Below are positions 2,559-33,234 of a stretch of DNA of 64,000 nucleotides, piece by piece. The notes beneath the pieces are model-generated. The model saw nothing but the letters and a program-made list of their open reading frames with translations. It was not told the origin of the DNA and made no database searches. The position numbers and the translations under genes were made by a program. The stretch is from Candidatus Aenigmatarchaeota archaeon (lineage in GTDB: Archaea; Aenigmatarchaeota; Aenigmatarchaeia; QMZP01; QMZT01), in assembly GCA_026397315.1 (NCBI GenBank), contig JAPLVC010000002.1, positions 32,001 to 96,000 of the forward strand, given 5' to 3'. How positions within the stretch are numbered: the first letter of the stretch is position 1; each line of letters begins with the position of its first letter.

Positions 2559-3746
2559 TCAAGGCTTGAACCACTCTATCTCGTAGTATTCATATTTTGA
2601 GCCGGGCAGGACTATCTTCTTCAGCTCGTAATAGGTTATGCTCGTCTCCCTGTCCGTGATCGAGAGTAACAGGTTCAGGCCCATGTCCTTGGCCATGTTG
2701 AGCAGCGAAGCGAGCTCTACGCCCCCGATGTGCTCGTCCTCCGATACCGCAATCAGCATATAGCGTGGCTTGTCCTTCGGCGTCTCGCGCACCCACGCCC
2801 CGTTGCCCATCTTCCTGCGGTAGGCGACGAAATCGACCGGCAGCTCCTTGTAGTCGCTTTTCTTCAGCTCCGGCACGCCGAGTATGAACGTCTTCTTCAC
2901 TCCATGCGCGACGCGCACCGCGCGCGACCATTCTGAAATGAGCAGCTTCTCCTCTTTCGGGAAGACGTGCAGCACGTGCTTCGAGTGTATCCACTCTTCG
3001 CCTTTTACTGGCGACGCGCCCGGGAAATAAATCCTGAAGTGAGAGCCGAACTTGAAGCCGGACTTGACCACGTATCCTTTCATCCTCCAGTCCTCATAGA
3101 CGTCGTAAAGCTGCTTGGCGTATTCGCGTTTTTTGGCGACCTCTTTAATCAGCTTCAACGGCGTGACCTTCCTGCCGTTCGCGACGTTCACTACGTCGAC
3201 TCCCAGGTGCTTGGCTAAGAATATGGTTTCGAAGAAGTCGAGCTTCGACTGTCTGCCGCGCTCCTGCTTGTAGACGCCGTATTGGCCGAGCCAGTATTTG
3301 TTGAATATCTCCAAGCCCGCTTCCTCATTGTCCAGCACCGAGAAAAGCGAGTCGGGATACCAGTACGCCTTAGCGCTTATCGCGGCGGGTTCGAATTTCT
3401 GGTCAGGGTATTTTTTGAAAGTCTTTTTTGAATGTTTGCCATGGATGCTCGGCCTGTATCTCCTCACGACGAGACCGCGGTCCCTCCAGTCGCGGTAGGC
3501 GTTGTAGCGGATGAACAGGCGCGGCTCGTCCCTGACGAAGTGTTTCGCCAGCGAGTTGAAGTCCATTTCCTTCCCTTCCGCGTCGCGCATGATGGCGTTC
3601 CTGAAAAGCATGAGATACATCGCTTCTTCCGGCATCAGGACTATGGTTTCCCCGTCCCTGTCGCCGAAGAAGTCGCTGGCCAGTTTTCCGACTGTCTCAG
3701 GTTCCGTGGCTGCAATCTTCCCGGTGTCGAATCTTAGCTCTAACAT
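2559..3746 (-). CDS. endA: tRNA-intron (splicing) endonuclease, three-unit epsilon2-like type
   Basis: Two Y.DWR..G repeats; GFKFGSHFRIY; putative catalytic Y240/H254/K285; GVYK loop at 157-160; 395 aa. Confidence 0.92.
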   Translation of the reverse strand: MLELRFDTGKIAATEPETVGKLASDFFGDRDGETIVLMPEEAMYLMLFRNAIMRDAEGKEMDFNSLAKHFVRDEPRLFIRYNAYRDWRDRGLVVRRYRPSIHGKHSKKTFKKYPDQKFEPAAISAKAYWYPDSLFSVLDNEEAGLEIFNKYWLGQYGVYKQERGRQSKLDFFETIFLAKHLGVDVVNVANGRKVTPLKLIKEVAKKREYAKQLYDVYEDWRMKGYVVKSGFKFGSHFRIYFPGASPVKGEEWIHSKHVLHVFPKEEKLLISEWSRAVRVAHGVKKTFILGVPELKKSDYKELPVDFVAYRRKMGNGAWVRETPKDKPRYMLIAVSEDEHIGGVELASLLNMAKDMGLNLLLSITDRETSITYYELKKIVLPGSKYEYYEIEWFKP

Positions 3747-9571: not shown

Positions 9572-9691
9572 TGGGCCGGGCAGGAATCGAACCTGCGGCC
9601 TTCGCGTTGTAAGCGCGACGTCATCTGCGGAACTTTTCCGTAAACGCTTTTGCGCGCACGCAAAAGGGTTTAACCGCTAGACTACCGGCCC
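9572..9691 (-). tRNA. tRNA-Val(TAC) with 47-nt D-loop intron (9625-9671)
   Basis: Acceptor GGGCCGG/CCGGCCC, anticodon arm TCGCG-CTTACAA-CGCGA, T arm GCAGG-TTCGATT-CCTGC; BHB GCGG-TTA-AAC...GTT-CCGC-AGA; 73 nt after splicing. Confidence 0.93.
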
Positions 9692-22627: not shown

Positions 22628-22688
22628 GCGGGAGTTGACCAGGTCGGGGATTGCGGCAGGATCAGGCGTTCCTGTGCCACCAACCCCA
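22628..22688 (+). ncRNA. Candidate small structured RNA
   Basis: GC-rich stretch starting 25 nt after TTTAAA, forming a GGGG...CCCC hairpin, followed by a T-rich tract. Confidence 0.3.
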
Positions 22689-23651: not shown

Positions 23652-23774
23652 TGCGCCGACCGGGATTTGAACCCGGGTTAGAGGCTTTTTCCATCAGTGG
23701 TTGCCGGATGCATCGAAACCCGCTGGGGTTTTGATTTGGGAAGCCCCTGTCCTACCAGGCTAGACTATCGGCGC
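23652..23774 (-). tRNA. tRNA-Gly(CCC) with canonical 37/38 intron (23687-23736, 50 nt)
   Basis: GCGCCGA/TCGGCGC acceptor, CCGGG-TTCAAAT-CCCGG T arm; strict BHB TTCC-CAA-ATCA...TGAT-GGAA-AAA. Confidence 0.95.
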
Positions 23775-23932
23775 AAACAGCGAATGACGCAGACAAGCCT
23801 GCGTCGAACTGTCGGGTGTTCTATAATATATTAGAATATAATAAAAGACTTTCAGTGCATGGAGCTGAAGCCGTGGCTATAGGGAGAAATAAAAAGAAAA
23901 AGCACTGTTTTTGTCCCAACCCTATTAAGCCT

Positions 23933-31389: not shown

Positions 31390-31549
31390 TGGGGCCGCTG
31401 GGATTCTCAAAGCCATTTTCCGCAAACGCTTTTGCGCGAGGCGGAAAAGGGTTTATTTGAACCCAGGTCGCCAGCACCCCAAGCTGGAATGATCATGGCG
31501 TCAAGCTCAAAAGCTCGAGGATGACTAGACCAAGCTACACTACGGCCCC
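31390..31549 (-). tRNA. tRNA-Pro(GGG) with two non-canonical introns: D loop (31494-31526, 33 nt) and T loop 59/60 (31404-31455, 52 nt)
   Basis: GGGGCCG/CGGCCCC acceptor, CCAGC-TTGGGGT-GCTGG anticodon arm, CTGGG/CCCAG T stem; BHB-like motifs at both inserts; 75 nt after splicing. Confidence 0.9.
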
Positions 31550-33101: not shown

Positions 33102-33234
33102 TGCCGATGGAGGGAATTGAACCCTCGACCCCCGCGTTTCCCTCTCACTGGCGCGCATAGCATGTGTCGCGTGCCTCGAATCTCATAACTTAAAAGATAT
33201 GAGCGCGGTGCTCTAACCACTGAGCCACATCGGC
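33102..33234 (-). tRNA. Elongator tRNA-Met(CAT) with 37/38 intron (33138-33197, 60 nt)
   Basis: GCCGATG/CATCGGC acceptor, CCGCG-CTCATA[intron]A-CGCGG, GAGGG-TTCAATT-CCCTC; GCC start fits archaeal elongator Met rather than initiator Met or Ile2. Confidence 0.9.

Follow-up and report, generated by a model that had tools for sequence, protein, structure and literature searches.

A structured hairpin core shared by tRNA-Val and tRNA-Pro introns of an Aenigmatarchaeota archaeon, a probable member of a mini-intron family proliferating among stable-RNA genes

The region considered here (the window) is a stretch of 64,000 nucleotides from the genome of a Candidatus Aenigmatarchaeota archaeon, denoted G000. 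Coordinates refer to the window unless prefixed; C1, C2, C3 and so on are contigs of this genome. The window contains five confirmed tRNA genes, four of which are interrupted, and one of which, tRNA-Ser, is without an intron. ARAGORN recognizes one of the six tRNA genes of the window (tRNA-Ser only; the sixth gene is a candidate at 22628-22688) and misses tRNA-Val and tRNA-Pro. Rfam matches tRNA-Val in part and tRNA-Pro not at all, and gives partial or no matches for multi-intron genes. Intron calls are based on a BHB-plus-cloverleaf solver that was written for this analysis; multi-intron genes at C7:84503, C2:82939, C3:149479, C7:132661, C7:139474 and C3:89558 were left unsolved or low-scoring. 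Two of the interrupted genes, tRNA-Met(CAU) (33102-33234) and tRNA-Gly(CCC) (23652-23774), carry introns of 60 nt and 50 nt, respectively, at the canonical position and without the module described below.

The tRNA-Val(UAC) gene (9572..9691, minus strand, 120 nt) was identified by the cloverleaf solver together with a partial Rfam tRNA match at 9580-9634, and contains a single intron of 47 nt (9625..9671, minus strand). The intron is located in the D-loop between mature nucleotides 20 and 21, immediately 5' of A21, and the BHB scan assigns to it a central helix with 4/4 pairs, an inner helix of 2 bp, and an outer helix of 3 bp. The junction is confirmed by the empty site in the congeneric genome G004, whose natural intron-less orthologue is identical to the predicted spliced product. 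A split of the same sequence into two introns, ranked level with the single intron by the solver, is spurious; the natural empty allele of G004 settles the single-intron reading. On the minus strand, the intron consists of a 5' pyrimidine-rich hairpin arm (X, 9662..9671), a G+C-rich loop-stem between the two arms (9652-9661), a 3' purine-rich hairpin arm (Y, 9642..9651), a purine tail that is nearly invariant throughout the family (Z, 9634..9641), and a site-specific tail (9627..9633), the latter obtained from direct reading and the BHB scan. The two arms were delimited by alignment, and their pairing is backed by covariation. Within the site-specific tail, 9631-9633 pair with intron nucleotides 2-4 to form the outer helix, and 9627-9630 pair with exon positions 9674-9677 to form the central helix; positions 9625-9626 together with the exon base A21 constitute the 3' bulge.

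The tRNA-Pro(GGG) gene (31390..31549, minus strand, 160 nt) was called by the cloverleaf solver, has orthologues in G001-G004, and contains two introns. The D-arm intron (31494..31526, minus strand, 33 nt) belongs to an unrelated sequence family and is found in all five congeners. The T-loop intron (31404..31455, minus strand, 52 nt) is located at position 59/60, as given by the BHB scan and by empty sites: the predicted junction equals the sequence of the empty sites in G002 and G004. Its BHB motif has a central helix with 4/4 pairs, an inner helix of 5 bp, and an outer helix of 2 bp. The intron has the same organization on the minus strand, with an X arm (31445-31454), a Y arm (31424-31433), a Z tail (31416-31423), an outer-helix strand (31410-31415), and an anti-exon segment (31406-31409) that pairs with T-loop positions 31458-31461.

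A local alignment of the Val intron with the T-loop intron of Pro contains 34 identities, 4 mismatches and 1 gap in 39 columns, with a score of 28. The maximal scores are 17 in 5000 dinucleotide shuffles and 21 among 20000 random genomic 52-mers. The identity of the two cores (~87%), each about 40 bases in length, lies above the 70% that is used to define transposed tRNA-intron families, with distinct tRNA genes or positions of one genome compared. A preliminary description, made from the sequence of the window alone, had proposed that a near-identical palindromic core occurs in both introns. Its intron coordinates and host loops are correct, the two arms indeed pair, and the resemblance holds up against shuffled controls, the kind of comparison that it had named. 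The further statement that only the 3' tails differ applies in part: the tails do differ, but so does the loop of the hairpin, along with a single base in the purine tail. The complementarity of each tail to its own exon is in register in both genes, with four of four central pairs each.

A third close copy of the core, detected by a fuzzy search and an HMM, is located in the D-loop of tRNA-Arg(UCG) (G000:C6:135584-135635), at the same structural position as the core in tRNA-Val; this gene also has a 15-nt canonical intron. Pairwise scores with the Arg intron are 26 for Val and 25 for Pro. A weaker solo copy is intergenic (C7:152676-152715) and is kept at the orthologous site in G003. Excision of the introns by the solver yields full cloverleaves with the anticodons UAC (Val), GGG (Pro) and UCG (Arg). 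The tail-exon pairings are GCGG with CCGC in Val, TTCA with TGAG in Pro (including one G-U pair), and CCGG with TCGG in Arg, and according to the BHB scan each of these three introns has a complete central helix (4/4) between 3-nt bulges. The Arg D-loop intron has an inner helix of 0 bp and an outer helix of 4 bp. Since the inner and outer helices comprise only 2 and 3 bp in Val, 5 and 2 bp in the Pro T-loop, and 0 and 4 bp in Arg, the motifs are relaxed rather than strict BHB motifs. A C/D box guide RNA or another known RNA family within the introns was considered and rejected: in the window, no Rfam family except tRNA reaches threshold, a permissive RNA-family scan of the tRNA-Arg locus (L001) and of a region of C7 (L002) returned nothing, and by reading, the 47-nt and 52-nt introns contain no C/D box motifs.

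The general form of the module is a pyrimidine-rich arm, a G+C-rich loop-stem, a purine-rich arm and an eight-base purine tail, in this order, beginning at intron nucleotide 1-3 directly after the 5' splice site. The hairpin arms pair with one conserved C-C mismatch. The module is followed by a short site-specific 3' segment whose first bases pair with the start of the module (outer helix) and whose next four bases pair with the four exon bases preceding the 5' bulge (central helix); the last two intron bases and the first base of the 3' exon form the 3' bulge. Across 25 aligned copies, taken from more than 15 genomes, the C-C mismatch and six tail bases never change, and the loop is variable. 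The hairpin itself shows covariation, with 92.6% of cells paired and 6 pairs changed on both sides; none of 500 shuffles gives a value as high, and slid controls are 25-56% paired. Minimum-energy folds contain the central helices of Val and Arg. For Val and Pro, the folds join the T-run to the tail's A-run and so extend the outer helix, and in the fold of Arg the module hairpin itself forms. The alternative helix between T-run and A-run is possible in 78% of cells and exhibits zero covariation. Since the minimum-energy folds of both Val and Pro include this helix, it may represent the form competent for splicing, though not the conserved one. The three tracts also fit the layout of a class II intrastrand purine-motif triplex, with four T-A-A triads and one C-G-G triad in a short tract, and their run lengths change together in some copies.

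A commoner sister module (the generic module) has the same architecture, a short-loop hairpin followed by a purine tail, and is found across tRNA loci of the genome. Ten introns of G000 open with a module, all in sense orientation: seven with the generic module and two with the G+C-rich core among the 29 introns that the solver called in tRNA genes with good scores, the tenth being the Val intron, which had been split in two and left untagged. The module starts at intron nucleotide 1-3, or at about nucleotide 8 in tRNA-Pro(CGG). The host sites are position 37/38 in tRNAs for Ala, Gln and Ser, the D-loop in Val, Arg, Glu and Pro-CGG, and T-loop position 59/60 in Pro-GGG, Arg-CCU and a Gln-like tRNA. 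The seven introns with the sister module contain it at C1:100279-100314, C2:54306-54338, C3:188139-188174, C6:145458-145492, C7:47355-47388, C7:157038-157070 and C7:111673-111702. The smallest case is the 33-nt T-loop intron of tRNA-Arg(CCU), which consists of the module alone, the module's own tail pairing with T-loop positions 54-57. The sister module is also found in four tRNA trailers (C6:135481-135513, C7:111529-111563, C7:71909-71942 and C3:89675-89709), 1-3 nt past the discriminator base and always in sense orientation, and at about nine further sites elsewhere. An HMM of the generic module retrieved none of the three G+C-rich cores, and the reverse search likewise. We treat both types as one family on the ground that orthologous introns carry either type, rather than on a profile match: the T-loop intron of the Gln-like tRNA is generic in G000 and G+C-rich in G001, and the D-loop intron of tRNA-Pro(CGG) is generic-like in G000 and G+C-rich in G002 and G004.

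Several further observations concern copies outside introns and their surroundings. On visual inspection, the 5' arm mostly has a run of four T in intron copies and often five or six in trailer or solo copies, a difference that would fit avoidance of oligo-T termination within introns and a possible use as terminator behind genes. Solo copies outside RNA genes start on or at the TAA stop codon of a coding gene on the same strand (G003 C16:11083-11114, locus L185; G000 C4:138909, C3:100265 and C6:116296). For the copy at G003 C16:11083-11114, the orthologous site in G000 (C6:~74,300) has no hairpin. A second repeat family, consisting of a G+C-rich hairpin followed by a short T-rich/GC motif, is located directly upstream of many tRNA 5' ends and also at the 3' end of some introns. 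Its copies include 23775-23805 (the leader of tRNA-Gly(CCC)), the leaders of the tRNA genes at C7:151079, C3:187288, C6:6262 and C6:135656, and the 3' part of the intron at C6:6300-6381. The purine tail of the trailer module has its complement in the tail of this second family, and hence a leader could pair with a trailer, or one end of an intron with the other. The sequence at C7:~152,560-152,643 (L002:~1060-1143) resembles the 3' end of a tRNA, although its T-arm and acceptor strand are degenerate and Rfam gives no tRNA match; a trailer module comes next. This could be a tRNA in decay or one with several introns. On the opposite strand, 35 nt away, is the solo G+C-rich core.

The core extends far beyond this genome. 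A covariance model (R1), built from the 25 copies, has matches in 69 of the order's 91 genomes and in 39 of its 45 genera; when the phylum is sampled evenly, R1 is found in 50 of 151 genomes and is patchy by family. The search for further copies suggested in the preliminary description was productive at both scales, with the D-loop copy of tRNA-Arg and one solo copy in G000 and the matches throughout the order. The number of copies per genome (roughly 1 Mb) ranges from 0 to about 51, and G000 with three copies is at the low end. According to a census that took in part of the copies, the cores are hosted by D-, anticodon- and T-loops of many tRNAs, by 16S and 23S rRNA genes, and by a few non-RNA sites; all copies within RNA genes are in sense orientation. 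Copies in 16S rRNA genes are found in G018 and, three of them, in G033; copies in 23S rRNA genes are found in G032 and G033. The nearest neighbour of a copy is located in the same genome for 20 of 58 copies, compared to 8.4 expected (1 of 2000 label shuffles is as high), and in G053 the T-loops of different tRNAs hold cores that are 100% identical. At the same time, loop-defined sub-lineages are common to distant genomes. The Pro core of G000 is nearer to a T-loop copy of G033, a genome of another family, than to the Val core of G000. This relationship and the different loops rule out Val and Pro as direct donor and recipient; both are members of one family and belong to different sub-lineages. 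As a side observation, two loci of G033 (L074:1502-1700 and L078:1503-1600) contain tandem arrays of three or four partial cores within apparent tRNA introns. The partial cores consist of loop-stem, purine arm and tail without the 5' arm, and the arrays point to slippage or unequal recombination at the DNA level.

The presence and absence of individual introns can be followed in five congeneric genomes (G000-G004) with G014 as outgroup. A tree based on three proteins (MCM, IleRS and PolB) has the topology ((G000,G003)100,((G001,G002)99,G004)81), rooted with G014. Protein identity is 96% between G000 and G003 and ~75% between G000 and the remaining congeners. The Val gene is syntenic with MCM in six of six genomes and the Pro gene is found near PolB, which secures orthology. 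Every empty site corresponds exactly to the predicted spliced sequence, and the comparison of filled and empty sites reveals no target-site duplication, just a 1-nt ambiguity.

The distribution differs for each of the three genes. For tRNA-Val(UAC), G000 contains the D-loop core alone. G003 has the same D-loop intron with 100% identity and an extra module intron in the anticodon loop that is found in this genome alone. G002 has a D-loop core with a different loop and the same tail, in addition to an unrelated T-loop intron. The gene of G004 is intron-less with exons 100% identical to those of G000, G014 is without the D-loop intron, and G001 has only a 17-nt mini-intron in the D-stem. The latter (L007, C59:~2956-2974) resembles a rearranged duplicate of the adjacent D-arm exon, which points to a different kind of intron origin. 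For tRNA-Pro(GGG), the T-loop core is present in G000 and G003, whose whole genes are 97% identical. The core is nowhere in the gene of G002; in G004, and only there, it is located in the D-loop, with the T-loop site empty; and G001 has a T-loop intron with the generic module. For tRNA-Arg(UCG), the D-loop core is present in G000, G004 and G009 (another genus) and absent from G001, G002 and G014, the predicted junction being equal to the empty alleles of G001 and G002. In G003 the Arg core is replaced by unrelated introns. We note that the two Arg genes of this closely related pair (L047, G003 C14:40527-40659, and G000 C6:135516-135656) differ in the 5' acceptor strand and both introns, that is, in the whole 5' half, and have the 3' half and the trailer module in common. 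The pattern suggests replacement of half a gene through recombination between strains.

Since the D-loop intron of tRNA-Pro in G004 and the anticodon-loop intron of tRNA-Val in G003 are singletons on terminal branches, gain is the best reading for both. Two gains are about as parsimonious as one gain followed by two precise losses for the introns in the D-loops of Val and Arg and in the T-loop of Pro. The comparison of orthologous tRNAs that had been proposed as a check finds syntenic genes that differ in the presence or the site of the core. Identical introns fixed in distant relatives were considered as the contrary pattern, and the introns are not fixed.

With respect to enzymes, the window encodes the splicing endonuclease EndA (2559..3746, minus strand, 395 aa; Pfam tRNA_int_endo_N and tRNA_int_endo) of the epsilon2 (three-unit) type, with a full-length match to PDB 4fz2, the epsilon2 enzyme of ARMAN-2 (E = 3e-104). 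It is the single EndA gene in the assembly, which also encodes RtcB. A relaxed EndA had been postulated earlier, and by its Pfam domains and its match to 4fz2 the encoded enzyme is of the broad-specificity epsilon2 type. In the 91%-complete assembly of G000 there is no RVT_1 match for a reverse transcriptase and no Y1_Tnp match for an IS200/IS605-type transposase (Y1_Tnp being the transposase family searched). The element does not conform to two known classes of mobile elements. It lacks the marks of a MITE- or REP-like element, having no target duplication beyond 1 nt and no Y1_Tnp match in G000, and those of a retro-mobile intron (group II-type or reverse-spliced), the introns being 47-52 nt in length and ORF-less, with no RVT_1 match in the assembly and tRNA as the sole Rfam family in the window. 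In the absence of target-site duplications, RVT_1 and Y1 matches in this 91%-complete genome, no mobility machinery can be named.

Taken together, the shared core most probably is a member of a structured mini-intron family that proliferates among stable-RNA genes of Aenigmatarchaeota, a reading to which we assign a probability of roughly 0.75. The earlier proposal of a short palindromic element that inserts into tRNA loops and is made spliceable by a matched tail and a relaxed EndA is supported by the outcome of each of its proposed checks made on genome sequences. These comparisons show the family itself, its conserved fold, the variety of its host sites, borders that follow the BHB rule and agree with natural empty alleles, and differences in occupancy among close relatives. 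The family is not specific to tRNAs, as it is also present in 16S and 23S rRNA genes and at a few non-RNA sites. According to the proposed mechanism, the portable 5' module and the site-specific 3' tail together would form a relaxed BHB substrate that is predicted to be cut by the epsilon2 EndA and resealed by RtcB, so that a copy landing in a tRNA or rRNA loop would be tolerated. New copies would come about when the module is copied to further sites, probably at the level of DNA, and only insertions capable of forming a BHB would survive. A loop insertion would persist only if its tail pairs with the local exon, allowing the broad-specificity EndA to excise it exactly, and insertions behind gene ends would require no such tail. 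The sense orientation within RNA genes fits selection for splicing and equally fits an RNA-level process. Insertion as such is inferred from comparative data, and some of the patterns would fit precise loss or allele replacement equally well.

A first alternative, which we consider unlikely, is that the core is a functional RNA or DNA motif under selection that does not spread, its recurrence reflecting recruitment for that function. The motif could, for example, be bound by a processing, chaperone or splicing-assisting factor, or act as a triple-helix-forming signal. The purine arm and tail are almost invariant in the 25 aligned copies while the loop varies, as expected for such a motif. The layout matches the class II intrastrand purine-motif arrangement of bacterial repeats (PMC4666352), the concerted changes in run length of the three tracts point in the same direction, and related modules are positioned exactly behind tRNA 3' ends and on stop codons. 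However, a function tied to a tRNA should keep the core at its tRNA, whereas orthologues with 95-100% identical exons carry it elsewhere or not at all, and the copy number varies from 0 to about 51 among similar genomes. The five possible canonical triads make a short tract, and the alternative Watson-Crick helix between T-run and tail A-run is without covariation. A recognised motif and mobility are not mutually exclusive.

A second alternative, clearly less probable than the first, is an introns-early scenario, in which all sites were filled in the ancestor and the present patchwork results from precise losses only, with zero new insertions. The Val D-loop intron is found with the same tail in the non-sister lineages of G000/G003 and G002, and the Arg D-loop intron is common to G000, G004 and a genome of another genus (G009); both patterns require either losses or repeated gains at one site. 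Yet the ancestor would have to bear the same core at dozens of tRNA and rRNA sites, followed by many independent exact deletions, for which no reverse transcriptase was found in the assembly. The two singletons, in the Pro D-loop of G004 and the Val anticodon loop of G003, would each need three or four losses, and the 100% identical cores at different sites of G053 indicate recent copying. Finally, a chance likeness of two A/T-run hairpins or an assembly artefact, in favour of which there is nothing more than the low complexity of the T-run and A-run, is refuted by the shuffle and genomic controls, none of which scores as high as the observed alignment, and by the same Val and Pro introns in the independently assembled G003.

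The proliferating mini-intron family has several partial counterparts among known systems. In Thermoproteales, highly similar BHB introns occur in distinct tRNA genes, by a mechanism described as unknown (Fujishima et al. 2010, as summarised in PMC4090602), and these transposed intron families have been re-measured in a recent preprint (bioRxiv 10.64898/2026.10.13.758758). The likeness includes distinct tRNA genes as hosts, canonical as well as non-canonical positions, and persistence limited to BHB-capable sites. The differences are that the host is a member of the DPANN/Aenigmatarchaeota with an epsilon2 EndA, and that the shared part is a structural module, covarying and with an invariant tail, which is found order-wide. 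In addition, the module is located also in 16S and 23S rRNA genes, at stop codons and past the ends of tRNAs, and it varies from 0 to about 51 copies per genome, with orthologous sites filled in some congeners and empty in others. In Thermoproteales, 16S rRNA genes are known to contain short (<50 nt) BHB introns that form hairpins (PMC4496867). These are likewise small and ORF-less and keep the BHB, and some Aenigmatarchaeota cores share the 16S/23S location. The Thermoproteales 16S introns, however, belong to particular rRNA loci, where co-conversion with adjacent homing-endonuclease introns is assumed, and a core shared with tRNA introns is unreported for them. ARMAN-2 (Ca. Micrarchaeum) combines non-canonical introns with a broad-specificity three-unit epsilon2 EndA (PMC3239211, PMC3488258). 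The three-unit enzyme and the D- and T-loop introns, including those at 59/60, resemble the situation described here. By their abstracts, the ARMAN reports concern the enzyme and its substrate range, whereas cleavage by the present EndA is predicted from sequence.

Bacterial BoxC, PIT and TMECO repeats are small palindromic or intrastrand-triplex repeats (PMC4666352). They resemble the module in being short and dispersed, in combining a pyrimidine and a purine arm with a purine tract that mirrors the latter, and in their conserved stems and variable loops. In contrast to the module, they are intergenic DNA repeats and not introns, whereas the element described here is transcribed within RNA genes; with only about five canonical triads, its triplex is putative. 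In Caldiarchaeum subterraneum, an integrating mobile element of 1.8 kb that encodes a recombinase is implicated in the disruption of a tRNA gene (PMC3293823). There too, population-level heterogeneity of intron content at one tRNA locus is read as recent gain linked to mobile DNA, but the unit here is 40-60 nt in length and ORF-less, and no recombinase is linked to it. Within the literature searched, no paper on tRNA introns of Aenigmatarchaeota was found. Similar introns across tRNAs in Thermoproteales, short hairpin introns in 16S rRNA genes, and non-canonical introns together with an epsilon2 EndA in ARMAN are already known. New are the lineage, the modular core common to tRNA introns, rRNA introns and extragenic copies, the copy-number range, and the filled and empty orthologous sites.

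How archaea acquire tRNA introns is an open question. A 2026 preprint surveyed the tRNA genes of Asgard archaea, put copying, mobile elements and reverse transcription to the test, and left the route of intron arrival open. In Aenigmatarchaeota, the arriving unit is recognisable by sequence and fold, there are filled and empty orthologous sites among congeners with identical exons, and the same unit is found in tRNA loops, in rRNA genes and outside genes, with recent bursts of identical copies in some genomes. Together, these properties make the question of intron arrival directly testable. Being part of a repeat family whose presence in tRNA and rRNA genes changes between close relatives, the core offers a rare direct view of how archaeal tRNA introns change. 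A practical consequence is that standard tRNA finders miss these intron-bearing genes.

The order-wide near-invariance of the purine arm and tail exceeds what a purely selfish hairpin would need and suggests a function or a recognition site. It is conceivable, and we offer this as a tentative proposal somewhat short of even odds, that the hairpin and purine tail serve as the recognition signal of an insertion system. Such a system would place copies of a 40-60 nt unit within, or directly behind, the stable-RNA genes and gene ends of Aenigmatarchaeota, with insertions in loops surviving as new BHB introns. If true, the module would be the first vehicle that can be identified for the gain of introns by archaeal tRNA and rRNA genes, acting in bursts of up to ~50 copies per 1-Mb genome.
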